Source of the DNA: a virus
Lineage: Duplodnaviria > Heunggongvirae > Uroviricota > Caudoviricetes
IMG/VR virus record: IMGVR_UViG_2529293216_000013
Length of the DNA stretch: 35,441 nucleotides
Strand: one strand, 5' to 3'
A program made the translations under genes and the position numbers. This document shows positions 8,275 to 25,587 of the stretch, one piece after another. How positions within the stretch are numbered: the first letter of the stretch is position 1; each line of letters begins with the position of its first letter. The notes under the pieces are model-generated. The model saw only the letters and a list, made by a program, of their open reading frames with translations. It was not told the origin of the DNA and did no database searches.

Positions 8275-8613
8275 CTATTTCCCTGAATTTACGACGAAAC
8301 TGTTCGAGCGGGCTGAAGCACTCATGCTCATAGCCTTCGCGGAGGTAGATAACCCGTTGTGTTTCCGGTTCCCAACGAATGACTCTGACGGGCACTCCGT
8401 AGTGATCTTTGAACCAGCGGTTAACTTGTCGCAAAGGACTGTCTCCTTTTGCCTGTTGAAATCACCCACAGCCCACTCTGCAAAGCTGTGGGTTACAATT
8501 TCCCTGTCACCTGGTACATTCACTGCATAGCAATACTCCACCTTCGCTTTTCCACCCGGTACAGGAAGTGCAATCAGTTGCGAGCGACGGTAGTGTGTTG
8601 TTAAACTGTTCAT
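8275..8613 (-). CDS. Hypothetical ORF between CII-like and O-like genes; frame ambiguous
   Basis: 112 aa ORF in one frame; a second minus-strand frame (8255..8434) has AAGGAG plus TTG start and a more protein-like product ([58 protein letters not shown]) ending in overlap with the O start. Confidence 0.3.
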
Positions 8614-9161
8614 GCGTTAGTTTCTCCACAGTCACGACACGCCACGGCGCCCGGAGCTGCACACTCGCGGGCGTCATTACTTTCTGAAATGCAAAAAATT
8701 TTGTAGACCAGTGCTGCATGCTCCTGCAGCTTCGAAATTGAGAGGTACAGCTCGTCGTTAATTGCTGTCTTCTCATGCGGTTCCACTACACCGTCTTCAA
8801 TTGCTGAACGAATCTGTTTTGAATAACTGCCGATCTGTTCAATGACCTCCAGCAGGCGTTGGTTGATATCGGCGTTGTCCACATCCTCGACATCAGGAAG
8901 AGACACAAAGACGCCATTTGCAGACTGCGCCACAGCGTCAGCAATGAAGTGAGTTCCACCAGCACGTTGCAAAATCATTGCCCATCCCAGCGGGAAAATC
9001 TGATCGCCATCGGCACGAAGGCGGTTAAATAATGCGTTCTCTGTTACATCCAGCCAGTCAGCAGCTTCAGCGTACCCCCCCGGCAACGCTGCGATAGTTT
9101 TTCTGACAGCTTTCACGTACCACTCAGGCTGTTTTTCTACTTTCCAGTGATGCTTACCCAC
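8610..9161 (-). CDS. CII/YdaT-like prophage regulatory protein (putative)
   Basis: 183 aa; immediately downstream of the Cro-like gene with overlapping start/stop; family assignment from memory only. Confidence 0.4.
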
Positions 9162-9414
9162 GGTTCACCTCCTGTTCCTGTGGTTTAAACCCATTCTGGT
9201 TTTGGCTAGATTGAAAACGTGCCGGATAAAGAATCTGCATTTCGCTGACTTCACCCTTAAAAAAATTGGCTAAACGTTCTGCAAGCTCGATAGATGGAAT
9301 CTGCTCCAGCCTCTCAATACGACTCAACGTCGCTGGATTGACTTGAACACCCGCAGCAACATGCTGCAAAGTGAAACCATGCGCCTTACGCACATTTCGT
9401 AATGGTGATTGCAT
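9154..9414 (-). CDS. Cro-like HTH repressor (XRE family)
   Basis: 86 aa; HTH GFTLQHVAAGVQVNPATLSRIERLEQIPSIELAERLANFF; divergent from cI across an operator-rich 97 bp spacer. Confidence 0.65.
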   Translation of the reverse strand: MQSPLRNVRKAHGFTLQHVAAGVQVNPATLSRIERLEQIPSIELAERLANFFKGEVSEMQILYPARFQSSQNQNGFKPQEQEVNRG

Positions 9415-9424
9415 ACGCCCTCCA

Positions 9425-9495
9425 AATATTGCGCGTTATGCATGTTATTTCACGCAATTATTTTGCGCAAGTTGATTTGCTTATCACGCAATAAA
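9425..9495. promoter_or_regulatory. Right operator/promoter region (OR-like) between cro-like and cI
   Basis: Repeated half-site motifs ATTGCGCG, CACGCAAT (twice) and palindromic TTGCGCAA in the divergent intergenic region. Confidence 0.5.
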
Positions 9496-9511
9496 GAAAT
9501 GTAATAAACGC

Positions 9512-10204
9512 ATGAACATAGGAAACCGAGTCAGACAACTTCGCCAAGCGAAGAACATGAAAATCGCCGATCTCGCTGAAGCGATAGGAGTAGATGCGGC
9601 GAACATCTCGCGCTTAGAAACGGGTAAGCAAAAACAATTTACCGAACAAACACTGAGTAATATTGCCAAGAGCTTAGGTGTTGATATTGCTGATCTCTTT
9701 ACCTCTGCCCACAAAAGTAATACTGTATATAAAAACAGTAATAATGAGGATGTTGCGCAGGTGAAGGATGTGTTCCGTATTGAAATGCTGGATATCAGTG
9801 CCAGTGCGGGAAATGGCCTTATCCAGGGCGGTGATGTCATTGATGTGATTCATGCCATCGAATACAGAACTGATAATGCTGTATCAATGTTCGGCGGACG
9901 ACCAGCCAATCACATCAAAGTTATCAACGTTCGTGGGGACAGTATGTGTCCAACCATTGAGCCAGGAGATCTCATCTTCGTTGATGTCAGCATCAATCAG
10001 TTTGATGGTGATGGTATATATGTCTTTGGTTTTGATGACAAAATATACGTTAAAAGACTTCAAATGATTCCTGACAAACTGCTGGTGATTTCTGATAACC
10101 AGATTTACCGTGAATGGGGAATTACTAGCGAAAACGAACACCGATTCATGGTCTTTGGAAAGGTCTTAATCAGTCAGTCGCAAACCCTTAAGAGACATAA
10201 TTAA
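9512..10204 (+). CDS. cI: CI-type prophage repressor (HTH plus S24 LexA-like autopeptidase domain)
   Basis: 230 aa; N-terminal HTH (MKIADLAEAIGVDAANISRLETGK); C-terminal S24 motifs VRGDSMCPTIEPGDLIFVD and YVKRL (Ser/Lys dyad). Confidence 0.85.
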   Translation: MNIGNRVRQLRQAKNMKIADLAEAIGVDAANISRLETGKQKQFTEQTLSNIAKSLGVDIADLFTSAHKSNTVYKNSNNEDVAQVKDVFRIEMLDISASAGNGLIQGGDVIDVIHAIEYRTDNAVSMFGGRPANHIKVINVRGDSMCPTIEPGDLIFVDVSINQFDGDGIYVFGFDDKIYVKRLQMIPDKLLVISDNQIYREWGITSENEHRFMVFGKVLISQSQTLKRHN

Positions 10205-10223
10205 CCTCAATATCCCATCCATC

Positions 10224-10248
10224 GGCCACCGAAAGGTGGCTTTTTATT
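10224..10248 (+). terminator. Rho-independent terminator downstream of cI
   Basis: GGCCACC-gaaa-GGTGGC hairpin followed by TTTTTATT. Confidence 0.65.
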
Positions 10249-10256
10249 ACCTATAA

Positions 10257-10295
10257 ATTTGCATATCTCGCAAATACCACTTGCATATCTCGCAA
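10257..10295. promoter_or_regulatory. Left operator-like tandem dyads (OL-like)
   Basis: Two copies of TTGCATATCTCGCAA (inverted TTGC...GCAA arms), sharing the TCxCGCAA core with the OR-region sites. Confidence 0.45.
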
Positions 10296-10502
10296 TTTAA
10301 TTTTATCTTTTATTCCAGACCAACTACAGGATTACAACAAAATCTGGTTGCAACACGGTGCATGTGTCGTAAGCAGTCAGTAAATGTCAAAAACGAACAG
10401 GCAGGACGCCCACGAAGTAGCCGCCTGGGGCATATGAAGTCCAGGATGATTCGTTGAGTCATGTTGTGCCACTAGGCACTCATGTTAAAGCAGGTGTATG
10501 AA

Positions 10503-10778
10503 ATGAAAGTCCAGATTTTAAACAATAACTGTGAAGTCGTTTGGTCATACGACATAGCCGCCCCTGTAGATCAGAGCGGCGATAGCTGGACCAATGGGAA
10601 ACATCAGATTATGGCTGGAGTTGTGTTCTCTTTACGCCGTGCTTTAGAACAGGCTGAAGTCTTTCCATCAGACCCTGAATGGAAATGGCCTTTTTCTATT
10701 TGTCCAAATTCGGAGAGTACATTTCAGAAAATTGGTCAGAAAGTCGCACTCGAAGAGCATCAGCCAACTGTTTCCTGA
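10503..10778 (+). CDS. Hypothetical protein downstream of cI (rex-position cargo?)
   Basis: ORF with AGGTG Shine-Dalgarno before ATG at 10503; no recognisable motif; 3' end overlaps a convergent ORF. Confidence 0.3.
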   Translation: MKVQILNNNCEVVWSYDIAAPVDQSGDSWTNGKHQIMAGVVFSLRRALEQAEVFPSDPEWKWPFSICPNSESTFQKIGQKVALEEHQPTVS

Positions 10779-10941
10779 TTTTTTCAGGTAACTCGTCGGC
10801 ATCGCAGAAACAACAACGCTCGATCATGTTGAAAGCCGATTCGTAGAACTGTTTTTGCTGAGTGTCGCTGAGACAGGAAAAGAGCGACGTTACGATGATT
10901 TTATTAATTGCATTATCAAGTTCTTTTTCATCAAAAGTCAT
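10696..10941 (-). CDS. Hypothetical small protein (81 aa)
   Basis: Protein-like composition (MTFDEKELDNAINKII...); convergent 83 bp overlap with the previous ORF, so one of the two may be spurious. Confidence 0.3.
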   Translation of the reverse strand: MTFDEKELDNAINKIIVTSLFSCLSDTQQKQFYESAFNMIERCCFCDADELPEKIRKQLADALRVRLSDQFSEMYSPNLDK

Positions 10942-11442
10942 TTGATTTTCCTTTTATGTATACGGGCTTAAAAGGATACCACCGAGCCTGAAGTGGTGAA
11001 AAGACAGGCACATAACAGCTAAGTATTTTCAACCAGAGAGAATCCTTAGCGTTGTGGTGAATGCGGCTCAGCGCACGCGGGTTAAGGTTGAGGCTGACAG
11101 TCGACCTTCTGTGGATACCCACCCGCCTGGTGTGCAACCTTCGCCAGGCACCGGGAGGCACCCGGCACCACAACTTTATGCTGTGTGTAGTCTTAGCGGT
11201 ACCAGCTTGTACCCTTGCTTCCGGCTGGTACCGTCCTTTTTACAAAACAGAGAAGAGCATCACCGGACGACGGGCTCATAACCCAATCCATCCGGGCGGC
11301 TGCCACCGCAGGTGTATAGCGCGGCGATTTTTTTGATACCGATTTGCATTTCATTTGATACCGCTGAAAAACGCCGATACGCAACTTATTTGATACTAAA
11401 TCGGCGCTTTTCTTTTGAGTTTTAGAATGAGTTTTTAAGCGC

Positions 11443-12180
11443 TCATTCACTCTCTTTCAAACCAGTTTTAACTGTTTGTGGTTTTGGGTAAGGCTGGACT
11501 TTGAATAGCTTTGTGTTGAGGCGTTTTCTGGCCCTCTTGTTCAGAAACCGGATGTAACGAAACTGTCGGAACTTATGAACACTGGCTCTGTCAATATTAG
11601 CCCTCAGATGTTCACCTCGTTGTCCGCCTCGTTTAATGGCATTCCTGCAAATCTCGTGATACCACTCGCCATCAAGTTCATAGAATATTGATTCATGGCT
11701 GCCTACATAATCAAAATTGCTTGCCTGATACACGACACCAAGACAGCCACAACGCTCATCTGCAAACGACTGAACCCACTGTACCTGCGGATAAAGCTGC
11801 CTGATTAGCTTGAGCGCGTAACTGATTGCCCTTGATTCGGAGTTTCTCGGCATACAGTCATGCAGCCATAGCCGGTTAAGCTCCATATATTCTCGGTTCT
11901 GCGTACCCGTTACGACGCGTGCACCACTGTTTGGGTTAAGGGCGTAACCCCATTGCATTACGCCAACAAGTTCCCGTTCTGAAAATATGCCCAGATGAAG
12001 GTAGGAGTTATTTACGAAACGGTGGCTGTAATGTTTATTGACGATGACCAGTCTGGCCAGCCAGCAACTTATTGTCTCAACCCGCAACTCACGGGAGCCA
12101 TAACCAACGATATTGTCGTTATAGCGAATAAGTTCAGGCGTGCTGATGATTCGGGATGTGACTTGCTTTCTGTTCCCCAC
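11443..12180 (-). CDS. mom: Mom-like DNA modification protein (GNAT-fold acyltransferase family), putative
   Basis: 245 aa; GNAT-like C-terminal signature [12 protein letters not shown]; start overlapped by a Com-like zinc-finger gene exactly as in phage Mu com/mom. Confidence 0.5.
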
Positions 12181-12334
12181 GACAGGATTTCCTTGTGTAT
12201 GTGGGGTGCTCTGTGGCGCTCGGAGATGTGATTTGATTGAGGGTTTTACAGCGCGGACATTTTACTTCCAGATAACTGAAACTGGCCCGTGCCAGTAGCT
12301 TATTGCAGTGTCGGCACCGTATGTTTCGATACAT
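12134..12334 (-). CDS. com: Com-like zinc-finger translational activator
   Basis: [34 protein letters not shown]...EHPT resembles Mu Com (IRCKNCNKLL...IRCPRCK...EHPT) as recalled; AGGAGG upstream of the internal ATG; 3' end overlaps mom start. Confidence 0.6.
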
Positions 12335-12364
12335 GACCGCATAACCTCCTGCTTTGTTGTTGAT

Positions 12365-12400
12365 GCCTTTCTCATGCAATCGATCGACAAAAACGATCGA
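12365..12400. promoter_or_regulatory. GATC-rich putative com/mom promoter region
   Basis: Two CGATCG sites (GATC at 12371..12374 and 12384..12387) plus TCGAT repeats within about 30 bp upstream of com. Confidence 0.3.
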
Positions 12401-12448
12401 TTCGATTTGTTTAATTGATACAACAAATAGATTGAAAAGTCATCAACA

Positions 12449-12913
12449 ATGATTCAGGGAGGTGATTATTTACTTAAAGAAAACGAAGAGTTAGGTGGTG
12501 AAAACGATCATAAAATGATCATTTTATTGACTTTTTATACAGTGAAGGTAGGATCACGCGTATATGTAGTATGTTTCAAATCAACAGGATACTACATAAA
12601 AGTGAAACCCAGCATAGCTGGAACTATGCTGGGTCAATCTGTAAAAACTTGCATCAATGCTTTACTTCGAGCTCGTGGCGTATCCTATGATATTCCCCGG
12701 TCTCCTGTAAAGCAGAGATGCATAAAAAGGAGATCTTTATCATGGATGAAAGAGCCTGTTTGCCCTGCCTGTAAGACTCCCTTACAGCTCATCTATCGCC
12801 GTTCTCGATCTCAAAATGGCAAGACATACAAACCCAAAAATGCTTCCTGTTTCAGGATGCTGATATGTCCTGCCTGTTCTCCCAGGAGGGAAAATACACA
12901 AAACGTGCATTAA
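12449..12913 (+). CDS. Hypothetical protein with C-terminal double CPAC zinc-ribbon motif
   Basis: ...VCPACKTPLQ...(26 aa)...ICPACSP; N-terminal part is low-complexity and may not be coding. Confidence 0.25.
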   Translation: MIQGGDYLLKENEELGGENDHKMIILLTFYTVKVGSRVYVVCFKSTGYYIKVKPSIAGTMLGQSVKTCINALLRARGVSYDIPRSPVKQRCIKRRSLSWMKEPVCPACKTPLQLIYRRSRSQNGKTYKPKNASCFRMLICPACSPRRENTQNVH

Positions 12914-12951
12914 CAAACTCACCCGGCAGGGAAACCTGCCGGTCGGTATTG

Positions 12952-13197
12952 TTACATCATAGTACCGTCAGTTCCGGGCTGAACCGGCTCTGGTTGCTCT
13001 ACGGGTTGAGGATCATTTTCCGTGCTGTTTTCAGCCGGAGAACGGCCAACCATTCGGGCCAGCACTTCATCAACATATGCGTCGATTTGTGCCTCAAAAT
13101 CCTTGCGAACCTGCGCCTTCAGCACGCGGTTCACTTCTTCAGAATAAAGTGCCTGTTTGACAAGCTCTTCAGTAACCGTGCCTTTAATCTCTGGCAT
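12952..13197 (-). CDS. Hypothetical acidic small protein (81 aa)
   Basis: AAGGAG Shine-Dalgarno 7 nt before ATG; acidic, Pro/Glu-rich C-terminus. Confidence 0.4.
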   Translation of the reverse strand: MPEIKGTVTEELVKQALYSEEVNRVLKAQVRKDFEAQIDAYVDEVLARMVGRSPAENSTENDPQPVEQPEPVQPGTDGTMM

Positions 13198-13232
13198 GAA
13201 TATTCTCCTTTTGCAGGTATATTGCCCCGTTA

Positions 13233-13415
13233 TCAGAGCGGGGTCGGGTCGTTTGGGGATGACGGTGCCTGTGCTGTTTTACTGAGTTTTTCAGCTGCCG
13301 CATCATCAATTTTACGGCGAATATAATTTCTGATGACCTTATAACCACCGCTCACCAGATATAACGCACTGACCACAGCGCAGAAATAAAGCAGCATTGT
13401 ATGAACGAATGTCAT
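13233..13415 (-). CDS. Hypothetical small membrane protein (60 aa, one TM)
   Basis: Hydrophobic segment MLLYFCAVVSALYLVSGG followed by basic stretch. Confidence 0.35.
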   Translation of the reverse strand: MTFVHTMLLYFCAVVSALYLVSGGYKVIRNYIRRKIDDAAAEKLSKTAQAPSSPNDPTPL

Positions 13416-13561
13416 ATAACCTTACCTTTGATATTGACTACATAATTCGTTATCGGGTAAAAACATCGAAGCGACTGATAACCACTCCTTCGGGAGTATT
13501 TTTATTTTCCTTTATGGGTTAGGTAGCTCCCGCCAGCCATATCATGACCGGCGGGATTTTT

Positions 13562-15601
13562 TTATTCTGTTACCGCTTTTTTCACTTCCACCACAATGCT
13601 GTCAATCAGCACCGGGTAAGTTGCATTTTTTGTGATATCCGTTACGCGGAGTTTGTCCACCGGGAAAGTTCCTACTGGTGACTGCGTCAGGGTAAACGCG
13701 GCACCATCCTGACCATCAATAACCGGAATAACCTGAAGGCTGTTATTTCCTGCAAAACGGAAGGCCAGCGTATGCCATTCATTATCAAATGCACCAAAGG
13801 TTCCCAGTTTCTGGTTATTTGTTGCCACTTTTGCATTGTGGTACATCACATTCAGGTCTTTTGCGTCTGTCTGGATGTAGAACGATGCCAGCAGATTATT
13901 CCCTGCATCCCCTGTCAGGGTGACACCCTGCGGCAGAGAGGAAACCGGCCAGTAAAGCCCCATGACATACTGGTTTGCCACCAGGTCGCCAGGTACTTTA
14001 AAACGACAACTGATTAAACCACCATTTTTCAGCAGTTCAGCACCAGTACCGGCATCATGATCCAGATACCAGGATGATTTACCTGTTTCCTTGGTCAGTT
14101 TCATTGCCTTACCACCTGTGCCTCCTGCATCACTGATAATTTCAGCTTTACCGCCAGCCGGCTCCCAGCCCTGGGCTTTCAGATTTCCTTCTGACTCACT
14201 GACACGATAAGACAGCAGTGTTGTGGTTACTGCTTCAGTTTCTGAAGGTGACGGCACTGGTGCTTCAGTTTCAGAAGATGGAACATCGGCTTTTACTGTG
14301 GTTCGCCCCGCATGAGTCAGAACTGCCGTGGCCAGACGGTCGGAAATAATCCCACGACGTGCCCATGAACTGAAATGGCTGGCCCGGTCCGCAGATGTCC
14401 AGGTGGCGGCACTGTTACGCCACGTTGAGCCGTAATAACCAATGGATTCAATATCCGGGTCTTCTGCCGGATTGTTGGTGGGTACATTCGCGTCATTTTC
14501 ATCTGTCATTAATGGAACGAAATGAATGTTTTTATCTGTTTTGTTTTTGTAGCCGCCATAGATTGCCTGGTATGCCGGTTCATTTTTCTGTTTCCAGAAA
14601 TACGTGGTATCGCCACAAATCCACGGAACGCCAGCAGCACTGCCACCGGTACACTGTTCCGCCTGTTCAGCCAGGTCTGCGCGGAATTTTTCCACCATCG
14701 CCAGAAACAGCGCGGAATGCTCCGTCGGCTTCGCATCAATATCAAACTCGCCCTGCATCCACACCACAGCAAGCAGGCGGTTTTTCGGGTTCTTCGCCAG
14801 TGCCGCTTTTGTCCGGCTGATTAAGTCCTTATACAGCGGCTTATCCACACCCCAGCGGGCTGAGTCCTCTGAAGCACCCGTGCTGTCACTGTACGTGCCG
14901 TCAGCACCCGCCGTGAATGCAGAACCACCACGGCAGCAGGGAACCAGCAGAATCCCCGCATCTGCCGGAATAAACGGCAGCAGTTTTTTGGCAATGTGAA
15001 GCCCCTGACCCACGGTGCCATATTGCCCTTTAGCCACATCCGCTTTCGGGTGATTTTTTCCACTCATATCCTGCACATCATGCAGACAGTGGTCGGCCAG
15101 AATGATGTCGTTATACTGACAGGCTTTACCTCCCGGCGTGACTGTACTGCGACGGGCTAACTGCATAATACGCGGTTCGGGGCGGTCATATGTCTCCGGC
15201 AGTGGCAGACCTTCACCGTAAGCCATACCGTTTGACTGACCAGCAAGAACCACCACGTAATACCAGGAAGGGGAGCTGGAAGCAGTTTCATTTCCTGACG
15301 GACGGGTATGTGTTTCAGCATTATCCCAGTCTGACGGTTCAGCAGTACCGGCAACATCAGCACTTAACGGAATGACCGCACCAATACCCGCTCCGGTAAT
15401 TTCCACACTCGGATCACCGGATACTGGCCTTACCCACAGGCAATCCCGTGTATTAAAACTGATGAGACAGTCAGCAAATGTCATTCCTCCTTTTGTTTCG
15501 GCCGGAGGAAAGGGAGCCTCAAGAAATGCCGCTGTACCACCGGAAACTTTAACAGTAAAGTTTCCGGGCATTGATGATAGTTGAACCCATTTGGACGTCA
15601 T
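13562..15601 (-). CDS. Prophage sialate O-acetylesterase-like protein (NanS-p-like, SASA/SGNH esterase core)
   Basis: 679 aa; motif VVVLAGQSNGMAYGEG (GQSN catalytic Ser motif); size and architecture resemble NanS-p paralogs of E. coli prophages. Confidence 0.65.
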   Translation of the reverse strand: MTSKWVQLSSMPGNFTVKVSGGTAAFLEAPFPPAETKGGMTFADCLISFNTRDCLWVRPVSGDPSVEITGAGIGAVIPLSADVAGTAEPSDWDNAETHTRPSGNETASSSPSWYYVVVLAGQSNGMAYGEGLPLPETYDRPEPRIMQLARRSTVTPGGKACQYNDIILADHCLHDVQDMSGKNHPKADVAKGQYGTVGQGLHIAKKLLPFIPADAGILLVPCCRGGSAFTAGADGTYSDSTGASEDSARWGVDKPLYKDLISRTKAALAKNPKNRLLAVVWMQGEFDIDAKPTEHSALFLAMVEKFRADLAEQAEQCTGGSAAGVPWICGDTTYFWKQKNEPAYQAIYGGYKNKTDKNIHFVPLMTDENDANVPTNNPAEDPDIESIGYYGSTWRNSAATWTSADRASHFSSWARRGIISDRLATAVLTHAGRTTVKADVPSSETEAPVPSPSETEAVTTTLLSYRVSESEGNLKAQGWEPAGGKAEIISDAGGTGGKAMKLTKETGKSSWYLDHDAGTGAELLKNGGLISCRFKVPGDLVANQYVMGLYWPVSSLPQGVTLTGDAGNNLLASFYIQTDAKDLNVMYHNAKVATNNQKLGTFGAFDNEWHTLAFRFAGNNSLQVIPVIDGQDGAAFTLTQSPVGTFPVDKLRVTDITKNATYPVLIDSIVVEVKKAVTE

Positions 15602-15700
15602 AATAATCAGCCTGTTCCTGAATAAACTGAATTATCATATCCACAGACCGATAAACGCCATTTTGCGTTAATTCAGTAAAGGCCCAACAAAGAGAGCGTC

Positions 15701-16261
15701 TTATTTTTCCGAAACGCTCGCAGGATAATAACGATAAAGGGTTGAAAGGCCGATATCAAAAATAAGTGCCACCTGTCTTCGACTGACACCCCCGGCCAGT
15801 AAACGCCCGACCTGCTCGTATTGTTCCTGCGTGAGACGACGGGGTCTGCCGCCGGTTCGTCCCCTTTCACGGGCAGCTGCAAGACCAGCCCGTGTCCGTT
15901 CGACAATTAATTCACGCTCCATTTCTGCCAGCGCACCCATTATGTGAAAAAAGAAGCGCCCCATGGGGGTTGACGTATCAATGTTGTCAGTAAGACTACG
16001 AAAATTTATCCCCTGTTGCTGTAATTCATCTGTCAGCGCAACAAGGTGGCGCATACTGCGCCCCAGCCTGTCCAGTTTCCAGACCATCAGTGTGTCACCG
16101 GGTTTTAGTTTCTTCAGTGCCCGCTTCAGTCCCGGCCGCTGTGTCGTTTTACCACTCATTTTATCTTCAAAAATCTGCTCACATCCTGCACATTCCAGCG
16201 CATTTCTTTGTAAACCTGTGTTCTGGTCATTTGTTGATACGCGTATATAGCCAATCAGCAT
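15701..16261 (-). CDS. pin: Serine recombinase DNA invertase (Pin/Hin/Gin/Cin family), copy 1
   Basis: 186 aa; MLIGYIRVSTNDQNTGLQRNALECAGCEQIFEDK...GRSMRHL...C-terminal HTH; close match to e14 Pin as recalled. Confidence 0.9.
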   Translation of the reverse strand: MLIGYIRVSTNDQNTGLQRNALECAGCEQIFEDKMSGKTTQRPGLKRALKKLKPGDTLMVWKLDRLGRSMRHLVALTDELQQQGINFRSLTDNIDTSTPMGRFFFHIMGALAEMERELIVERTRAGLAAARERGRTGGRPRRLTQEQYEQVGRLLAGGVSRRQVALIFDIGLSTLYRYYPASVSEK

Positions 16262-16687
16262 GTATTTACCTTCCTTAAAAAGAGGTGGAAAGGCCTTTTA
16301 AAGCAGATATACGGCATCCCTGAAACCTTCGGTTTACGGGATACTGTAAACAGGGCCGCGAATGCCCTGCCATCGAACGGAGCGGCTGTTGCAGCGAATA
16401 AACTCGCCACTCCAAGAAATATTAATGGTGTCCCATTTGACGGAACGCAGGATATAAATATTACATCGGGGATGACGCAGTCTGTGGCTGACTCACGTTA
16501 TGTTCAAAGCATTCGAAGAGGTTCAAGGTCAACGATTGGAATGCAATATAATATTTTTGAGGTTCCTGACGGATGCGTACTTACAGGGCTTGATGTCGCT
16601 GGTGATGGTAATGCAACGGTAACCGCATATTATCGACCTGTTCAGTTTCTGATAGATGGTTCGTGGAAAACAGCTTCCAGCGCATAA
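16262..16687 (+). CDS. Tail fibre variable C-terminal segment (Sv), 5'-truncated (no constant part)
   Basis: Open frame from 16238 without start codon; ...LATPRNINGVPFDGTQDINITSGMTQSVADSRYVQ...AYYRPVQFLIDGSWKTASSA. Confidence 0.55.
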   Translation, partial: VFTFLKKRWKGLLKQIYGIPETFGLRDTVNRAANALPSNGAAVAANKLATPRNINGVPFDGTQDINITSGMTQSVADSRYVQSIRRGSRSTIGMQYNIFEVPDGCVLTGLDVAGDGNATVTAYYRPVQFLIDGSWKTASSA

Positions 16688-17715
16688 AAGTGCAGTAGTT
16701 CAAAAAACAGATTATCTGAATAAATATATGATGATTTTGTCTTTTCAACAAAAACAAGGTGAAATAATGGAGCTTATTAACGTAAAACGATATTACCCGG
16801 AACACAAACCCTATGGTGAGGATGTTCAGTATTTCCAGAGTGAGGACGGAAGGGATTTTTATGAATCTATCCCGCTTTTCACAAAGAAATACAAACTCTG
16901 TATTTCGCCTGTAACGGGTATTATCTGCTCTGTTGCTGAAGATGTCTCTGCTTTATATCCGGCAGGTTTTACTGTTGTTGAAGTGGACGAACTGCCGGAA
17001 GGTGTGAATATTGACGGTAACTGGCAGTTTTCTGATGGCCTGATATCAAAGGTGCCGGTAAACTGGAAGACGGTTGCTGAAAAGCGCCGCTCATCGCTGC
17101 TCCAGGAAGCCAACGAAACTGTGGATGACTGGAAAACGGAATTAAAACTGGACATGATTAGCGATGAAAATAAATTACAGCTGACGCGCTGGATGGCGTA
17201 TATCCGACAGCTTAAAGAAATGCACTTTAATGATATTGCCAGTGAGGGGCATTACCAGGCGATTCCCTGGCCGGAAAAACCGGAATAATTCAGAGGGTGC
17301 ATTCAGCACCCTTTTCTGTGGTTTACACTGAACTTACCGTTCTCCAGGCATTATTAATATAAATCTGAACCGGGCGATAATAGACCCCACCGATATTGTC
17401 CGCAGACCGGGAGCCGGTTTCCTGCACGTTAATTCCGGAAAGCATACAACCGGAAGGTGCGCTGTAATTCCATGACATTTCATTGCCTCCGGGTGAATGA
17501 TAGCTCTGTGCTCCAAGCTGAACATTCTGTACATACCGGCCATCTGCGGTTGACTGCGTCATTCCTGACGTGATGTTGATATCCAGCGTTCCGTCAAAAG
17601 GAACACCATTAATATTTCTTGGGGTGGCGAGTCTGTTTGCTGCCACGGCGGTTCCACCCGATGGCAGGGCATCAGCAGCCTTATTTACCGTTTCCCGTAA
17701 ACCAACGTTTAAGAA
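16318..17715. mobile_element. Invertible tail-fibre segment (G/P-segment-like) between inverted crossover sites
   Basis: gix/cix-like sites AAACCTTCGGTTTACGGGA near 16320..16343 and inverted partial copy near 17692..17712; both lie inside tail-fibre reading frames at the conserved ...GLR(D/E)TVN(R/K)AA(N/D)ALP... junction. Confidence 0.55.
16767..17288 (+). CDS. Tail fibre assembly protein (Tfa/U-like)
   Basis: Start MELINVKRYYPEHKP with Shine-Dalgarno; C-terminus ...LTRWMAYIRQLKEMHFNDIASEGHYQAIPWPEKPE typical of Tfa chaperones. Confidence 0.7.
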   Translation: MELINVKRYYPEHKPYGEDVQYFQSEDGRDFYESIPLFTKKYKLCISPVTGIICSVAEDVSALYPAGFTVVEVDELPEGVNIDGNWQFSDGLISKVPVNWKTVAEKRRSSLLQEANETVDDWKTELKLDMISDENKLQLTRWMAYIRQLKEMHFNDIASEGHYQAIPWPEKPE

Positions 17716-17745
17716 AATGCAGAGATTATGGCTAACTGGCATCAT
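17323..17745 (-). CDS. Alternative tail fibre variable C-terminal segment (Sv')
   Basis: Shares ...LATPRNINGVPFDGTLDINITSGMTQSTADGRYVQ... with Sv, then diverges; ends ...VYYRPVQIYINNAWRTVSSV. Confidence 0.55.
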   Translation of the reverse strand: MMPVSHNLCIFLNVGLRETVNKAADALPSGGTAVAANRLATPRNINGVPFDGTLDINITSGMTQSTADGRYVQNVQLGAQSYHSPGGNEMSWNYSAPSGCMLSGINVQETGSRSADNIGGVYYRPVQIYINNAWRTVSSV

Positions 17746-17772
17746 CCCCGGTTTTTACTCAGGGGAATGCTC

Positions 17773-18327
17773 ATGCTTATTGGCTATGTCCGCGTATCAA
17801 CAAATAACCAGAATACGGAATTACAGCGTAATGCGCTGGAGTGTGCAGGATGTGAGCTGATTTTTGAAGACAAGATAAGCGGTACAAAGTCCGACAGACC
17901 AGGACTGAAAAAGCTGCTCAGGACATTATCGGCAGGTGACACGCTGGTGGTCTGGAAACTGGACCGACTGGGGCGCAGTATGCGGCATCTTGTCGTGCTG
18001 GTGGAGGAGTTGCGCGAACGAGGCATCAACTTTCGTAGTCTGACGGATTCAATTGATACCAGTACCCCAATGGGGCGCTTTTTCTTTCATGTGATGGGTG
18101 CCCTGGCTGAAATGGAGCGTGAACTGATTGTTGAACGAACAAAAGCTGGACTGGAAGCAGCTCGCGCACAGGGACGAATTGGTGGACGTCGTCCCAAACT
18201 TACACCAGAACAATGGGCGCAGGCCGGGCGATTAATTGCATCAGGCGTTCCTCGCCAAAAGGTGGCGATCATCTATGATGTTGGTATATCGACACTGTAT
18301 AAGAAGTTTCCGGTCGGAGATAAATGA
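17773..18327 (+). CDS. pin: Serine recombinase DNA invertase (Pin family), copy 2
   Basis: Start MLIGYVRVSTNNQNTELQRNALECAGCELIFEDK...; roughly 80% identical to copy 1, opposite orientation. Confidence 0.9.
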   Translation: MLIGYVRVSTNNQNTELQRNALECAGCELIFEDKISGTKSDRPGLKKLLRTLSAGDTLVVWKLDRLGRSMRHLVVLVEELRERGINFRSLTDSIDTSTPMGRFFFHVMGALAEMERELIVERTKAGLEAARAQGRIGGRRPKLTPEQWAQAGRLIASGVPRQKVAIIYDVGISTLYKKFPVGDK

Positions 18328-18387
18328 AACCGTAGCACGTCGTATGCAAGAAGATCGTGCTGCGGTTTATGCTTATCACTTAAAGAC

Positions 18388-19257
<870 letters not shown>

Positions 19258-19337
19258 CTAAGTCTTTGAATTTACATAGTACAAAAAAGATACTTTTCCT
19301 CATAATGTGAATTAATTTTATGTTTCGTTTGATGATT

Positions 19338-19403
19338 GGACCGGTCTCGAAAACCGGAGTAGGGGCAACTCTACCGGGGGGGCAAATCCCCCTCTCTCCG
19401 CCA
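19338..19403 (+). tRNA. Degenerate 3' fragment of tRNA-Ser (serU-like, anticodon CGA); probable prophage att scar, not a functional tRNA
   Basis: GGACCGGTCTCGAAAACCGGAGTAGGGGCAACTCTACCGGGGGGGCAAATCCCCCTCTCTCCGCCA matches the tRNA-Ser(CGA) 3' two-thirds as recalled, with a damaged T-loop (GGGCAAATCC instead of GGTTCAAATCC); 5' acceptor/D-arm absent. Confidence 0.6.
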
Positions 19404-19976
19404 CTTTATCAATGACTTATCTCCCGACTTCCCGCCTTGCTTTTCCTAAACAGAACAATCGTAGAATATTCTTGAAGGGTTAGATCGTCACTGTTTTCTG
19501 TTCGATACTGTGACATTCAGCACTTGATTCGCTATGGATCTGACAGGAAGGTTTCGAGCGAAAATCTGCAGTTATTCAGTCGTTTTCTTATCGGTCACCA
19601 TTATTCTTTTAGACATTGATCCTACAAAGCTGCCGCAAAGTTGGTGGTGGGAACTGAAGTTGCGTAGAGAAGGGGTCAATACCCGGAGGCAAACATGGGC
19701 TGGCAAAAGTGTAGCGGTATTAGGCGCAGCTATTTAGCCTAGTTATGTTTTATGAAAACTTGATATCATATAAGTGTCTTACTTATTGGCTGTAAATAAG
19801 TTTTTCCTAAGGAATTGTTTCTTGAGTATCATTTGTAACTGTAACGGAATTTATAATCCTTTGCTTTATTGTTACGGTATTTTTTATCACACCCTATTTT
19901 TAGTGGTTTTTTATACTGAAGTTTGGCAAAGTGAACTTTATATACATATACTTCATCCTGGTTTCAGTTAAATTGG

Positions 19977-20729
19977 GTGGATGATATGGCAACTACATGT
20001 TCAGTTATATTGATTTTGGAGTCCTTTGATGTTTATTTCGGAAAAGAGAGTGTGTTTCTGGAGAGAGGTTCATCTGTACTTGTCGACTCTAGCTCTAGAG
20101 ATTTTTTCCTGACATATCCTGAAAGAGTGATAGTGGCGGATTTTGGCGCTGAGTTTATTAGTCGCTATTTGAAAGCTAATAACTTAAGGGATATTTCTGA
20201 TTGTAGGGAATATCCATCTTATTTAAAAATAAACTTTGCTGACTTCAGTTTAATTAAAGGATTAATTAGTTGGGCTAATCACTGTGCTGAATACATAGAA
20301 ATTTTTGATGAGTCTATTGCTTTTACATGTCTCTCTGCATTTTCTTCTGAAAAACAATTTGGAGTATTTCTGTTTGGATGTTTGAAAAGCACAGGGGCTA
20401 AAGTTAAAACGATTATTCATACGGATTTATCTGCACCATGGCGTCTTAAGGATATATCATCAAGATTATATCTCAGCGAAAGTTTACTAAAGAGGAAATT
20501 GAAAGAAGAGGGGGTATCATTCAGTAAGATCATACTTGATGAGAGGATGCAAATGGCTGAATATTTACTCAGCACTCGTTGTTATCCTATTAGTAAAGTA
20601 GCTAAGGTCTGTGGTTATGCCAGTGTCTCATACTTTACTTATGTATTTAGACGTTATTTTGGTGTTTCTCCAAGTCAATACTCTCAGAGGAGTTCAGAAA
20701 GTAAAATTCTTACTCACCAGGGAATCTGA
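19977..20729 (+). CDS. AraC-family transcriptional regulator (AppY-like, AT-rich)
   Basis: 250 aa; C-terminal dual HTH WRLKDISSRLYLSESLLKRKLKEEGVSFSKIILDERMQMAEYLL...VAKVCGYASVSYFTYVFRRYFGVSPSQY resembles AppY as recalled. Confidence 0.7.
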   Translation: MDDMATTCSVILILESFDVYFGKESVFLERGSSVLVDSSSRDFFLTYPERVIVADFGAEFISRYLKANNLRDISDCREYPSYLKINFADFSLIKGLISWANHCAEYIEIFDESIAFTCLSAFSSEKQFGVFLFGCLKSTGAKVKTIIHTDLSAPWRLKDISSRLYLSESLLKRKLKEEGVSFSKIILDERMQMAEYLLSTRCYPISKVAKVCGYASVSYFTYVFRRYFGVSPSQYSQRSSESKILTHQGI

Positions 20730-20770
20730 TCATTGTTCTTGCCCCCTTATTTCCAGACAGGGGGTGTATC

Positions 20771-21214
20771 TTAAGTTAACGTTACCCGCTGACGTCGATA
20801 TTCTCGCGGAGAGCGATAACCCAACGCACTGTGCGGATGGTTTTCATTGTAATGTTCGATCGCCACTGCAAGATTATGCAATGCCGTTCTTACATTCGGT
20901 TTCGGCATGAACGCGATATAGTCTTCCTTCATCGTTTTCACGAACCTTTCTGCAATTCCATTACTCTGAGGACTGCTGATTGCCGTTGTGCAGGGCTCCA
21001 GATTCAACTCTCTGGCGAACTGCCGTGTTTCATGCGCTCTATACGCTGAACCGTTATCTGTCAGCCACTGGATGGACTGTTCCGGTACTTTATCGCCAAA
21101 GCGTTTTTCTATCGCTCCTAACATGACATCCTGCACTGTCGCTTTATCGTAACCTCCCGTGCTTGCGGCCCAGTCTATGGCTTCACGATCGCAACAGTCC
21201 AGGGCGATTCATCT
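20771..21214 (-). mobile_element. IS3-family (IS2-like) transposase remnant: C-terminal DDE-domain portion only
   Basis: ...[50 protein letters not shown]...[14 protein letters not shown] matches IS2 OrfB C-terminus; no ATG, frame closed upstream by a stop near 21215. Confidence 0.7.
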
Positions 21215-21483
21215 GGGCCAATCCTCGCTCATAACAGGCATTCACTTCAGTCATGGCAGAAAGGTATGCATGCTGGAGAAGTCGTGAAAGAAAAGAAGAC
21301 TGCTGCGCCGTTTGTCGTCACGTTTATCTTCATTGGCTATGCAAGTCGTAATACAAGGTGGGACAAAACTGAGACACATAAGGCCTCGCAATGGCTTGCA
21401 AGGCTTTACATGTTTTGATGTGGTGGGACGTGTGAGCGCAGTGTTGATGGGGTAATGCTTTGAATTAGAAGCGGATTCTTATA

Positions 21484-21529
21484 ATTCGTAATGCGAAGGT
21501 CGTAGGTTCGACTCCTATTATCGGCACCA
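21484..21529 (+). tRNA. 3' fragment (about 46 nt) of tRNA-Thr (thrW-like); attL core of the P4-like element
   Basis: ATTCGTAATGCGAAGGTCGTAGGTTCGACTCCTATTATCGGCACCA matches the thrW 3' half as recalled; upstream sequence does not match the tRNA 5' half. Confidence 0.65.
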
Positions 21530-21691
21530 TCTCAACTTCCTCAAACGTCCGTATTAGTCCATAAAATCTCTGATTTATAACATTTTTTATTCTTTTAAGT
21601 CCATAGTAGTCCGTAACCATCCAGTAGAATCCGGTACTGAATGTGTATAGGATTGTGTATATGTTCCTGTTCGGTCTGGATTCCTATACAC

Positions 21692-22873
21692 ATGCCTTTA
21701 AACGATATGCAGATTCGCCGCGCTAAGCCTGAAGCTAAAGCCTATACATTTGGAGATGGGCTAGGGTTGTCATTACTTATAGAACCTAATGGAAGCAAGA
21801 GTTGGCGGTTCCGCTATCGCTATGCCGGCAAACCCAAAATGATCTCGCTTGGTGTTTACCCAACGATCACCCTTGCCGATGCTCGTTCCCGTCGTGATGA
21901 AGCTCGAAAACTTGTGGCAGAAGGAAAGAACCCTAGTGAGGTTCGAAAAGAGCAAAAGCTAGCTATGCAAACAGAGTCAGAGAACGCCTTCGAAAAGATA
22001 GCCAGAGAGTGGCATCAACTTAAATCTGCTAAATGGTCGGCGGGATATGCATCAGACATCATGGAAGCGTTTAAGAACGACATTTTTCCTTATGTCGGAA
22101 CAAGGCCTGTGGGAGAGATTAAACCGCTAGAGCTGCTGAACGTTCTGCGTAAAATTGAGAAACGTGGTGCGTTGGAGAAAATGCGCAAAGTGCGGCAGCG
22201 TTGCTCCGAAGTGTTTCGCTACGCAATTGCAACGGGTAGGGCGGAGTACAATCCTGCGGCTGATCTCTCCAGCGCTCTCGAAGTACACCAATCCAATCAT
22301 TTCCCATTCCTAAAAGCTGATGAGATACCTGATTTTCTACGTGCCTTAGAGGGTTACTCCGGGAGTAAGCTTGTCCAGATAGCCACGAAATTACTGATGA
22401 TTACGGGTGTGAGAACCATCGAATTACGCGCGGCATTATGGCAAGAATTTGATCTGGATAACGCTATTTGGGAAATTCCTGCTGAAAGGATGAAAATGCG
22501 TAGGCCACATCTTGTGCCCTTATCATCTCAAGCGGTAGATTTACTCAATGAACTCAAGATCATGACAGGGAACTATCGTTATGTTTTTCCAGGGCGGAAC
22601 GATCCGAATAGGCCAATGAGCGAAGCGAGTATAAATCAAGCCATTAAGCGTATTGGGTATGGAGGAAAAGTCACTGGACATGGTTTTCGTCATACCCTTT
22701 CTACAATCCTGCATGAGCAAGGTTTTGAGAGTGCTTGGATTGAAATCCAGTTGGCTCATGTAGATAAAAATTCTATTAGGGGGACTTATAACCATGCTCA
22801 ATATTTTAGTGGAAGGAAGTCTATGATGGACTGGTACAGTAATTTGATATTTGAAAGACTAAAAAGGAGTTAA
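21692..22873 (+). CDS. int: P4-type tyrosine integrase
   Basis: N-terminus MPLNDMQIRRAKPEAKAYTFGDGLGLSLLIEPNGSKSWRFRYRYAGK...; C-terminal catalytic region HGFRHT...; adjacent to tRNA fragment. Confidence 0.85.
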   Translation: MPLNDMQIRRAKPEAKAYTFGDGLGLSLLIEPNGSKSWRFRYRYAGKPKMISLGVYPTITLADARSRRDEARKLVAEGKNPSEVRKEQKLAMQTESENAFEKIAREWHQLKSAKWSAGYASDIMEAFKNDIFPYVGTRPVGEIKPLELLNVLRKIEKRGALEKMRKVRQRCSEVFRYAIATGRAEYNPAADLSSALEVHQSNHFPFLKADEIPDFLRALEGYSGSKLVQIATKLLMITGVRTIELRAALWQEFDLDNAIWEIPAERMKMRRPHLVPLSSQAVDLLNELKIMTGNYRYVFPGRNDPNRPMSEASINQAIKRIGYGGKVTGHGFRHTLSTILHEQGFESAWIEIQLAHVDKNSIRGTYNHAQYFSGRKSMMDWYSNLIFERLKRS

Positions 22874-22876
22874 TTT

Positions 22877-23293
22877 GTGTCTCAACCACTTTCGGAAATA
22901 TTGACATGGGATGATGAACAATGGGAGGTATTTGTCCATGATTGGCTTATTGTCTGTAAATCAGATGATTACCCGTGGAGCGAACGTTTGGGAGGAGCTG
23001 GAGATAAAGGTAGAGACGTTGTTGGATATAAATCGGATCCTAACGTAGAAGGTTATTCTTGGGATAATTATCAATGCAAACTGTACAAAAAAAGTTTAGG
23101 GTTCTCTGATGTTGTAGTTGAGTTTGGAAAACTTATCTATTTTACTCTGAATGGTGATTATCCCATCCCTCAGAAGTACTTTTTTGTGGCACCCTATGAT
23201 TTATCTACTACATTTTCTAATTTATTGAAAAATAAAAACGAGCTTAAAAAAGCAGTCCTTGATTCATGGGATTCAGCAATTTCAAAAAAATAA
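22877..23293 (+). CDS. Mrr-like PD-(D/E)xK nuclease domain protein, 5' segment of candidate defence effector (LmuA-like); frame breaks in A7 tract
   Basis: GTG start with AAAAAGGAG Shine-Dalgarno 4 nt after int stop; motif GGAGDKGRDVVGY...YQCKLYKK resembles Mrr catalytic core GDGGIDG...QCKRYK; about 28% GC. Confidence 0.5.
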   Translation: MSQPLSEILTWDDEQWEVFVHDWLIVCKSDDYPWSERLGGAGDKGRDVVGYKSDPNVEGYSWDNYQCKLYKKSLGFSDVVVEFGKLIYFTLNGDYPIPQKYFFVAPYDLSTTFSNLLKNKNELKKAVLDSWDSAISKK

Positions 23294-23883
23294 CTAAAAA
23301 GATTGATATTCCATTAGATGATGAAATAAAAAAATATATTGAGGATTTTGATTTTAGTATTTTTTACTCTCTACCCTTATCATTGATTTTAAATGATATT
23401 GCAAATACACACCTTTATTTTAAGTACTTTAACGAGCTGTATGTCGTGAGAATCCCTCCAAATGAAATTCCAACATACAATTCAAAAAAAGAGTCTGTAT
23501 ATGTTAATGCACTGCTTCAAGCCTATTCAGAGCATGGAAATAAAACTTATAGTTCTTTCTTAGAGCTTGATGATCCATACAGACGACACTTTAATAATAG
23601 TAGAAATGATTTTTATTTTGCATCTTCGCTTGAGGTTTTTGTCCGCGAAGTATTTAAAGATGATGTATTCAAAGCATTGAAATGTTACATTTCATCTTCA
23701 ATTGAACCCGTCTTTTATGAAGACCATAATTATGCATTTATTAGGTGTAATGCAGTCTTGAAGCAGGCTGTTCTGACACCAATTGCACATTCAGTACTAT
23801 CAAAAATATGTGAAGCAAATGATAAAAAAGGAATATGCCATCATTTGGTTAATGATGGTGAAGTAATTTGGACGGTGAGATAA
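23266..23883 (+). CDS. 3' segment of the same candidate effector gene (C-terminal domain, function unknown)
   Basis: Frame is +1 relative to previous ORF and fuses with it if the A7 tract at 23284..23290 is read as A8 (...DSWDSAISKKITKKIDIPLDDEIKK...). Confidence 0.45.
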   Translation: MGFSNFKKITKKIDIPLDDEIKKYIEDFDFSIFYSLPLSLILNDIANTHLYFKYFNELYVVRIPPNEIPTYNSKKESVYVNALLQAYSEHGNKTYSSFLELDDPYRRHFNNSRNDFYFASSLEVFVREVFKDDVFKALKCYISSSIEPVFYEDHNYAFIRCNAVLKQAVLTPIAHSVLSKICEANDKKGICHHLVNDGEVIWTVR

Positions 23884-24341
23884 TGGTTAGAATTTATAAT
23901 TCAAGTTTAGAAGTGGCATGTCGAATGGCGAAAGTGCTCGTCGCTATTTATCCTTCTTCATTAAGCCTTGAACGGCTTATTTGTTTTGATTTTATTTTAG
24001 TAAATCTTAAGGATTTTTTACCTGAAGAGATTAGTCTTCATCCTCCAATACCCCGTAGAGATGCTCAGTTAGCCCTAAAACGAGAGATTGTTTTAGAATC
24101 ATTGGCTTTGTTGCAAGGCTATGAACTAGCCTCAAAAATTTATACACATCGTGGTTTTGTATATAAAGCTTCTGAAAAAACATATGCATTTACAAATTCT
24201 CTACATAATGAATATGTTGCGCAGATGGAGCATAATATAAATTTGGTGGTTAAGTTATATAGTGATATTCCTGATGAGCAGTTGCAATCAATTATAAAAA
24301 ATAAAATTGGCAAATATGATATGGAATTTAATTATGAATGA
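23883..24341 (+). CDS. Small middle component of candidate defence operon (LmuC-like position)
   Basis: ATG overlaps upstream stop (TAATG); 3' end overlaps next gene start (ATGAATGA); AT-rich; no recognisable motif. Confidence 0.45.
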   Translation: MVRIYNSSLEVACRMAKVLVAIYPSSLSLERLICFDFILVNLKDFLPEEISLHPPIPRRDAQLALKREIVLESLALLQGYELASKIYTHRGFVYKASEKTYAFTNSLHNEYVAQMEHNINLVVKLYSDIPDEQLQSIIKNKIGKYDMEFNYE

Positions 24342-24966
24342 CAATTTTTTTACGTTCAGAAAAATAAAGGTAACCGGATTCAATAAATTAGATGCTATAA
24401 TTGAATTTGGTTCTAAATTGACTATTTTATATGGTGGTTCTGACTCTGGAAAAACATACATATATTATTTGATTCGATATTTATTAGGGAGTGAAAAACT
24501 AAAAAATAAAGATATCGATCATGCTCAAGGTTATGATTTAGCCTATCTGGAATTTAATTTTCAAGGTAGGGTAATGACAATTGAGAGGTCTCTTCAGGAT
24601 AGCGCCCATTACAGATTATATGATTCGAGCATTGAAAATGTTAGTGAAGCTAATCTGTTGATGGTTTTTTCCAAAAGTGCTTCGTCTAAAAAGAGTTTTT
24701 CATCATACTTTTATGGTAGGTTGAATTTCAAAGAGGCTAAAGTAAGAACAAACTTAAGTAATACTCTTCATAAATTTAATCTTAATAATGTTTTTGAATT
24801 TTTTTGTATTGATGAATTAAGAGTGTTAACTGAGAAGTCGTTAATTCTTTCTGATATTCCTAGCGAGGAGACAAAAAGAAAGTCTGAATTTAAATTCCTT
24901 TTAACTCAGAGAGATGATACTAACTCCTTAGCAGAAAAACCAAATAAAAAAGCAAGATATTTTTAA
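24334..24966 (+). CDS. SMC/Rad50-like ABC ATPase, N-terminal head segment with Walker A (LmuB-like)
   Basis: FRKIKVTGFNKLDAIIEFGSKLTILYGGSDSGKTYIYYLIRYLLG (Walker A GGSDSGKT); ends at in-frame TAA 24964..24966, after which the same frame stays open. Confidence 0.5.
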   Translation: MNDNFFTFRKIKVTGFNKLDAIIEFGSKLTILYGGSDSGKTYIYYLIRYLLGSEKLKNKDIDHAQGYDLAYLEFNFQGRVMTIERSLQDSAHYRLYDSSIENVSEANLLMVFSKSASSKKSFSSYFYGRLNFKEAKVRTNLSNTLHKFNLNNVFEFFCIDELRVLTEKSLILSDIPSEETKRKSEFKFLLTQRDDTNSLAEKPNKKARYF

Positions 24967-24996
24967 AAAAATCAAATTGCAAATATTTATGAGGAA

Positions 24997-25587
24997 TTGA
25001 AAGCGCAATTAATTTATCCTGAATATGATCAAGTCATTGTTTCAAGAGAACTTGAGAAAGTAGAGCAAGATATTGAATCATCGAAAGATATATTGAAAGG
25101 TATTGTTGATGCACTTGATGATAAGAAGCAATTATTAAAAGAGTTAAGTGATGAATTATATTCAATCAGTGACAGGGAAAAATACTTATCATTACTCATT
25201 GAAAGATTTAGTCTTCTTAAAGACCAATACTTTATAGATCTACAAAGAATAGATGTTGTATCACAGGCGAATTTCTATTTAAATAATTTTGCAGATATTT
25301 ATTGTGAGTTCTGTAATACACCGCAAAAAAAAGAAAATGAAATATCATATGATGATTGTTTTTTGTCGTGTAATGCAGAAAAATTGAAAATCAAAAGCCA
25401 GCTGAAAGGATTAATTGAATCAATCGGATCTAATGTTCGCGAACATGAATTAATTATGTTAAGAAAAAATGATGTTAATGAAATTTATCAATCAGAAAAA
25501 AGTGATTTTAAGACGTTAGAAGATAAAAATATAAAACAATACATTCATCTCTTGAATCACTTTATGAATATAAAGACAATCTTTTAA
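24997..25587 (+). CDS. Coiled-coil segment of the ATPase with CxxC hook-like motif (same frame as previous segment, no ATG)
   Basis: Heptad-rich sequence; YCEFCNTPQKK...C...C near the middle; frame continuous with 24334..24966 apart from one TAA. Confidence 0.45.
   Translation: MKAQLIYPEYDQVIVSRELEKVEQDIESSKDILKGIVDALDDKKQLLKELSDELYSISDREKYLSLLIERFSLLKDQYFIDLQRIDVVSQANFYLNNFADIYCEFCNTPQKKENEISYDDCFLSCNAEKLKIKSQLKGLIESIGSNVREHELIMLRKNDVNEIYQSEKSDFKTLEDKNIKQYIHLLNHFMNIKTIF

Follow-up and report, generated by a model that had tools for sequence, protein, structure and literature searches.

Organization of the locus

The window analyzed here is a stretch of 35,441 nucleotides (positions 1-35441 of scaffold JH962232.1 from Escherichia coli O157:H7 strain FRIK1999, GCA_000303775.2) that contains no run of N. 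At positions 15701 to 18327, it carries a tail-fiber segment flanked by two serine DNA invertase genes. As described below, this locus very probably arose by site-specific inversion between crossover sites of two different fiber-inversion systems of the Din family (Gin/Pin) and represents one of the two resulting junctions.

The left invertase gene, pin1 (15701-16261, minus strand), encodes a Gin-like enzyme of 186 amino acids from a Mu-like prophage, and the right gene, pin2 (17773-18327, plus strand), encodes a pinE-like enzyme of 184 amino acids from a prophage integrated at thrW; an open reading frame of 199 amino acids that begins at 17728 is an upstream extension of pin2. Both genes are intact, and each reads outward from the segment. 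The Resolvase and HTH_7 domains are present in both products (Pfam, E about 1e-51), and the protein alignment reveals a common GY(I/V)RVST motif. The pin1 product matches the Gin structure 3UJ3 (E 2e-91) and is 73% identical to Mu Gin, and the pin2 product, which is identical to WP_000905124.1 (annotated as pinE), is 78% identical to Mu Gin. The 5' coding regions of both genes align well with Mu gin, the 5' part of which is the position of the Fis enhancer in Din-family systems. An earlier reading of the nucleotide sequence alone (the sequence-only reading) described two invertases of about 80% identity flanking the segment; both intact genes are in place, but their identity is lower, i.e., 73% at the amino acid level (132/181) and 76% over 414 nucleotides.

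The segment between the crossover cores is 1374 bp (1.37 kb) long. It contains Sv (16331-16687, plus strand), a headless variable C-terminal fiber cassette; the co-oriented gene for the tail-fiber assembly protein Tfa (16767-17288, plus strand; Caudo_TAP, E 2e-18); and a second headless variable cassette, Sv' (17323-17703, minus strand). This arrangement, in which Sv' is encoded on the strand opposite to that of Sv and Tfa, is that of the sequence-only reading. The fusions of the two cassettes to the constant fiber part (Sc) of the Mu-like prophage are found elsewhere: Sv gives a fiber of 295 amino acids (153 contigs), and Sv' gives one of 303 amino acids (at least 1000 contigs). In the window, the frame upstream of the crossover site remains open for 26 codons (Sv) or 10 to 16 codons (Sv') and then reaches a stop codon; the open reading frame of 139/140 amino acids that extends to 17745 and overlaps Sv' is an artefact spanning the junction. 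No constant fiber part of either prophage was detected by tblastn anywhere in the 35-kb window, and none was found in frame upstream of either crossover site. The earlier statement that neither orientation yields a complete fiber therefore holds for the window locus, in which Sv and Sv' would be silent cassettes. The orientation of the segment is identical in the assemblies of FRIK1999, SRR427067, and SRR8924463. Although the G segment of Sp18-type prophages encodes two alternative tips, it has a single Tfa gene, which reads in the direction of Sv; in Mu, by comparison, both U and U' are present. The commoner G orientation (Sc joined to Sv', 303 amino acids) is without a co-oriented chaperone gene.

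Mosaic origin of the window

The window was compared with 5426 complete E. coli genomes, and an Sp18-type Mu-like prophage (L001) and the thrW prophage of strain FRIK2455 (L003) served as the parent references. The window is a three-part mosaic of these two prophages. Positions 1-11315 (minus strand) contain the early and lysis region of the thrW prophage, from the cI-like repressor to Rz, and are 100% identical to the opposite strand of FRIK2455 (NZ_CP015843.2, 309891->298577); this part belongs to the inverted interval. Positions 11315-17709 contain the right end of the Sp18-type prophage (mom, com, the esterase gene, the gin-like invertase gene, and the G segment) with 99.98% identity to L001. 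The thrW prophage from the pinE side onward occupies positions 17699-35441 (plus strand) and is 100% identical to the forward strand of FRIK2455. In FRIK2455, as in related O157:H7 strains, the integration site of this roughly 35-kb prophage is thrW. Neither junction of the window is present in any of the complete genomes.

At the left junction (11315/11316), identity to the Mu-like prophage starts exactly at the Sp18 end known from other genomes, and identity to the thrW prophage ends at the same base. This junction is the insertion of a transposable phage into the resident thrW prophage. At the right junction, a three-way alignment with L001 and L003 shows agreement of the window with the Mu-like parent as far as 17709 and with the thrW parent from 17699 onward, which places the breakpoint within 17699-17709. 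The parents share only 11 bp there (AAACCAACGTT), and these 11 bp are the center of the 26-bp crossover site in both systems. Apart from FRIK1999, only two independent assemblies, SRR427067 and SRR8924463 from the Sequence Read Archive (SRA), were found to contain the hybrid open reading frame that spans this junction; the SRR8924463 contig with the window-type junction (L005) differs from the window by 2 nucleotides in 4.3 kb.

Since the flanks match two separate prophages, the fusion of two inversion systems, which the sequence-only reading had offered as an alternative, is correct. On the other hand, its view of the pin genes as paralogs that arose by duplication is rejected, since the genes belong to two different prophages, are 73% identical, and have different flanks, each 99.98-100% identical to that of its own parent.

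Crossover sites

In the proposed site map, the crossover sites of the two systems are a (Sc|G of the Mu-like prophage), b (G|gin), c (Sc2|G2 of the thrW prophage), and d (G2|pinE). The core AAAC(C/G) TT GGTTT is common to all four sites. Site a is TTCCCGTAAACC AA CGTTATCGATAA and site d is TTCTCCCAAACC AA CGTTTAAGAAAA, with the same central dinucleotide. The right site in the window (17692-17717) is a hybrid, TTCCCGTAAACC AA CGTTTAAGAAAA, in which the inner half is derived from Mu-like site a and the outer half from thrW site d; it has the canonical 12-2-12 form with core AA. The left site (16316-16342; ATCCCTGAAACC TT C GGTTTACGGGAT) is site b, which bounds the Mu-like G segment on the side nearer to gin. 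It has core TT in the inverted orientation and is 27 bp long instead of 26 bp, with an extra C at 16330 between TT and the inner half. Both sites lie in an inverted repeat of 183 nucleotides (16324-16506/17528-17710; 78%); the sequence-only reading had placed crossover sequences inside both Sv reading frames. The sites resemble Mu gix, as well as the crossover-site consensus of Sandmeier as quoted in PMC4134206.

The C at 16330 is missing from SRR8924463, L027, L008, and many Sp18-type prophages. In a spread sample drawn from the 187 matching genome records, it was present in 12 of 60 rows (about one fifth), all in one orientation; the C-less left site was the majority form, and the opposite-orientation rows that could be classified were all C-less. 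This pattern is suggestive only, as the sampled genomes are related. A serine recombinase should work less well when the spacing of the half-sites is changed by 1 bp, and local flipping of the segment in FRIK1999 is probably blocked by the extra C. The left site in the window may be dead, and the C may have arisen either as a mutation that inactivates the site or through an aberrant reaction of the invertase. Flipping of the window segment would not alter fiber expression anyway.

Proposed inversion between sites a and d

In the mechanism proposed here, the Sp18-type Mu-like prophage first inserted into the early region of the thrW prophage in the same orientation, a step documented by the left junction. 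This common orientation is fixed by the geometry, so that the four cross-compatible sites, which the insertion, as the parent sequences show, brought within about 40 kb, alternate in orientation. A serine invertase would then have paired the inverted sites a and d, cut at the central TT/AA dinucleotide, and exchanged the strands, flipping the roughly 38 kb between a and d (1375 + 5013 + 31638 bp, on the assumption that the thrW prophage has the length of that in FRIK2455). The acting enzyme could be pin1 or pin2, presumably with Fis and an enhancer.

Two products are predicted: (i) gin - b - G - d/a - pinE and (ii) Mu-like tail genes - Sc - a/d - G2 - c - Sc2 - thrW tail genes, in which the tail genes are convergent. 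In the first, G would lie between gin and pinE without a constant part, which is the arrangement seen in the window; in the second, G2 would lie between two constant parts without an invertase, an arrangement found in another assembly (see below). Both prophages would be split by the inversion, which should be reversible, given that the canonical 12-2-12 form is preserved in the hybrid sites. For the lineage, the inversion between a and d is demonstrated; for FRIK1999 itself, we infer it.

Reciprocal product and further recombinants

Exact look-ups of the predicted reciprocal fusion proteins, which were built from the FRIK2455 sequence, gave no match because the tip cassette of FRIK2455 is frameshifted. 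This gp53-like tip cassette adjoins pinE; it is frameshifted in FRIK2455 (L003 37846-38255) and intact in SRR8924463 (L007 10001-10903) and FRIK944. A homology search with the Mu-like constant part identified P0031, a protein of 300 amino acids in which the Mu-like Sc is fused to the thrW gp53-like tip at ...DNVGL|GEAAKRD.... In SRR8924463 (L007), the P0031 gene lies where the Mu-like and thrW tail modules converge, and no invertase gene is present. This arrangement is product (ii): positions 4526-10551 of L007 match the Mu-like parent, and positions 10526-20903 match the thrW parent in reverse. SRR8924463 thus carries both the window-type and the reciprocal junctions. The same two-headed neighborhood occurs on two further contigs, one of them from GCA_025331335.1, the 141-kb contig of which, QOZM01000173.1, might hold both junctions. 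Neither of the two-headed arrangements was found among the complete genomes. The constant parts were therefore not lost by decapitation, which was the other alternative of the sequence-only reading, but were moved by the reciprocal inversion and now flank the segment of the other prophage at the other junction; a simple deletion of the constant part is rejected.

The single inversion between b and c was also observed. At its loci, in ERR11798335 (L020), ERR11797960 (L022), ERR11798334 (L024), ERR11797961 (L025), and similar places, the Mu-like G segment has Sc2 on one side and the Mu-like Sc on the other, and an invertase is absent; the two tail modules are convergent, and the Sc2 and Mu-like Sc fusions are 223 and 295 amino acids long, respectively.

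The double product, a reciprocal swap of G and G2, lies on one contig of 97.8 kb (AAQYMI020000018.1 of GCA_011836255.2). On this contig, G2 is located in the Mu-like prophage, where it adjoins Sc and gin (L008 10532-12420), and G is located in the thrW prophage, where it adjoins Sc2 and pinE (L021 10292-11664, fusion protein P0147). The insertion point of the Mu-like prophage differs from that in the window and lies before the portal gene of the thrW prophage. The swap gives intact hybrid fiber genes, namely the gene for P0031, followed by a co-oriented assembly-protein gene, and the gene for the converse fusion P0147, in the segment of which the sole Tfa gene is on the opposite strand.

All three predicted recombinant classes, the two single inversions and the reciprocal swap, are thus observed. 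In the site table, the four outer and four inner half-sites occur in the parental and in the a/d, d/a, b/c, c/b, and c/a combinations and are always joined at TT. Both parent segments occur in both orientations, G as fibers of 303 and 295 amino acids and G2 in complete genomes (L010 vs L011), and both parent inversion systems are active in nature.

Three further arrangements were noted. In SRR11909393 (L023 10292-11664), a c/a junction fuses the thrW Sc2 to the Mu-like G, after which come gin and the esterase gene; this junction would imply a megabase-scale chromosomal inversion between the two prophages if the Mu-like phage were at its usual distant locus in the opposite orientation. In GCA_036955825.1 (L009 1-2908), the Mu-like constant part is joined to a Collar-type tip of another Pin-bearing element, with HNH and PmrD as neighbors, which suggests an exchange with a third inversion system. 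P0143, which is encoded on 9 contigs, and P0103 are variants of the Mu-like fiber of 303 amino acids; in these proteins, an internal stretch of the constant part, up to the crossover site, resembles the reverse-complement translation of the normal sequence, as could be expected if site a had recombined with a quasi-site in the constant part and inverted the DNA between them.

Alternative explanations

The two prophages could also have been joined without an invertase, by RecA-dependent homologous recombination or by template switching between the 5' parts of Sv or between the pin genes, all of which are 76-78% similar. However, the breakpoint is located in the 11-bp identity at the crossover core and not in the longer similar stretches. 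The examined recombinants (a/d, d/a, b/c, c/b, and c/a) all break at the same TT, and the nested contexts show only the combinations permitted for inverted sites. This route is unlikely.

It is very unlikely that Mu-type replicative transposition alone made the rearrangement. Mu-like phages do transpose (PMC10132054), an intramolecular event can invert the DNA between two Mu copies, and the Mu-like end at 11315/11316 is exact. Transposition, however, joins Mu ends to the target, whereas about 6.4 kb separate the Mu-like end from the junction at 17704, which is inside the G crossover site and joins it to another crossover site; no Mu-like end is present at 17.7 kb. Transposition accounts only for the junction at 11.3 kb, i.e., for the insertion step.

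A chimera produced in assembly or scaffolding, which would have joined the two prophages at similar pin or Sv sequences, has been largely refuted and retains a very small probability. FRIK1999 is a draft scaffold, and the junction is found in no complete genome. On the other hand, the window has no N gap, and only 11 bp are common to the parents at the join. This length is shorter than typical assembler k-mer lengths. Moreover, contigs of two independent SRA-derived assemblies run unbroken across the junction, and one of these samples contains the exact reciprocal junction.

A single native or degenerate system, in which a shufflon deleted its constant fiber gene and gained a duplicated invertase, would fit the local picture of two invertases and no constant part but is excluded, because the flanks match different prophages over 6-18 kb (99.98-100% identity), the 73% identical invertases are not recent duplicates, and the constant parts are located at the reciprocal junction.

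The inversion between a and d accordingly remains the preferred explanation, and several points weigh against it. The span of about 38 kb far exceeds the usual substrates of Din-family invertases, which are 1.4-4 kb. A scan of the invertase 5' regions for the Fis consensus was empty even in Mu gin itself and is uninformative. The reciprocal junction was seen in the near-identical SRR8924463 and not in the FRIK1999 assembly, the contig of which starts at window position 1. Among the complete genomes, the uninverted nested parent and all recombinants are absent, and all recombinants come from draft or SRA-derived assemblies. Finally, the extra C at 16330, which lies inside a crossover site, distinguishes FRIK1999 from SRR8924463.

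Neighboring genes

The right terminus of the Mu-like prophage (11316-11400, minus strand) contains repeated TTGATACCG-type motifs and adjoins thrW-prophage DNA at the transposition junction. It is followed by mom and com (11443-12334, minus strand), which were assigned from the L001 annotation and from the Pfam domains Mom and Zn_ribbon_Com in L004. A gene for a sialate O-acetylesterase-like protein of 679 amino acids (13562-15601, minus strand; SASA and DUF6645 in Pfam; WP_010917876.1 in L001) is carried as cargo. The order gin-com-mom is that of Mu, with extra cargo genes between gin and com; this cargo consists of the esterase-like gene together with DUF1378 and DUF826 genes, whereas Mu has nothing at this position.

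On the right side, pin2 is followed by a LEM-3-like GIY-YIG gene (18388-19161, minus strand; Pfam), which is its usual right-hand neighbor in all normal contexts; the contexts of pin2 that were retrieved, from the longest contigs only, all have the normal arrangement. A P4-like satellite with integrase, Psu, Ogr/Delta, and primase-helicase genes is located at about 21700-33000, just to the right of the thrW prophage, and carries an ABC-three-component system (CTD6, MC2, and an AAA ATPase).

Comparison with known inversion systems

Enzymes, sites, and chemistry all conform to the known Gin/Cin/Pin/Hin family; no counterpart of the inter-prophage outcome was found in the literature searched. As in the Din-family systems of Mu (Gin/gix), P1 (Cin/cix), and e14 (Pin/pix), the invertases are small serine recombinases (73-78% identical to Mu Gin), the gix/pix-like 12-2-12 sites lie within the fiber frame, the Sv/Tfa cassettes are on opposite strands, and the exchange takes place at the central dinucleotide. 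In Mu, P1, and e14, one invertase gene adjoins the segment and a constant N-terminal fiber part lies outside it. In contrast, the window has two intact invertase genes, one on each side, and no constant part, both constant parts being at the reciprocal junction, where the other segment has no invertase. A further difference is that the exchange is between sites of two separate systems, one in each prophage, over a distance of about 38 kb; in addition, the left site is 27 bp long. The term "shufflon" used in the sequence-only reading is only loosely apt, because shufflons of the R64 type employ the tyrosine recombinase Rci, 19-bp sfx sites, and pilV, whereas serine recombinases and phage fiber parts are found here.

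The Min system of plasmid p15B is said, in the work of Sandmeier et al. from 1990 to 1994, to have six crossover sites. It resembles the present case in having more than two cross-compatible sites, alternative inversions, and reassortment of C-terminal fiber cassettes. More than two mutually recombining sites are likewise seen here across the assemblies, with two of the four in the window. The Min system nevertheless has a single invertase and a single constant part at a single locus, whereas here prophage nesting provides four sites, two invertases, and two constant parts, and whole prophage halves are inverted.

Large chromosomal inversions between prophages of O157:H7 have reportedly been described as products of homologous recombination by Iguchi et al. 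in 2006. The inversion proposed here is similarly bounded by prophages and occurs in the same pathotype, but those inversions involve kilobases of homology and this one involves 11 bp at a recombinase core. Din-family enzymes are also known to act in trans: invertase action on segments of other prophages is described for Phi1/Phi4 of strain EC958 (PMC4134206), and PinQ of Qin acts on e14 (PMC12529663). The enzymes in those cases, as in ours, are not restricted to their own sites. Both sites were in one segment in EC958 and in the PinQ case; here, each system contributes one site, the DNA between the prophages is rearranged, and the cassettes are exchangeable. Sp18-like Mu phages often insert into other prophages and mobile elements in Shiga toxin-producing E. 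coli (PMC10132054). In the full-text literature searched, which does not include older papers in subscription journals, we found no description of recombination between crossover sites that belong to two different prophages.

Biological implications

No part of a phage genome is more mosaic than the tips of the tail fibers, the movement of which between unrelated phages is only partly understood. An exchange of fiber tips through crossover sites was proposed on sequence grounds in the 1990s. An earlier capture of this exchange with both reciprocal products was not found in the literature searched. The locus in the window and its relatives show that invertase crossover sites serve as portable exchange points between two co-resident prophages. 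Taken by itself, the window locus is of moderate interest; it is of greater interest as evidence for this exchange mechanism.

The inversion splits a transposable Mu-like phage and the thrW prophage in a strain of enterohemorrhagic E. coli and may immobilize both until it is flipped back. Such loci also mislead annotation, as they appear as "tail fiber" fragments and duplicated pin genes. In the broader picture that we consider about evenly balanced between right and wrong, a Mu-like phage that lands in a prophage with a Din-family switch would merge the two switches into one system with four sites and two invertases; reversible flips of tens of kilobases would then split and ground both prophages, and two inversions would exchange the receptor-binding cassettes without homology. 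If this is true, it would be a natural and recurrent route for the horizontal movement of tail-fiber tips between unrelated phages.

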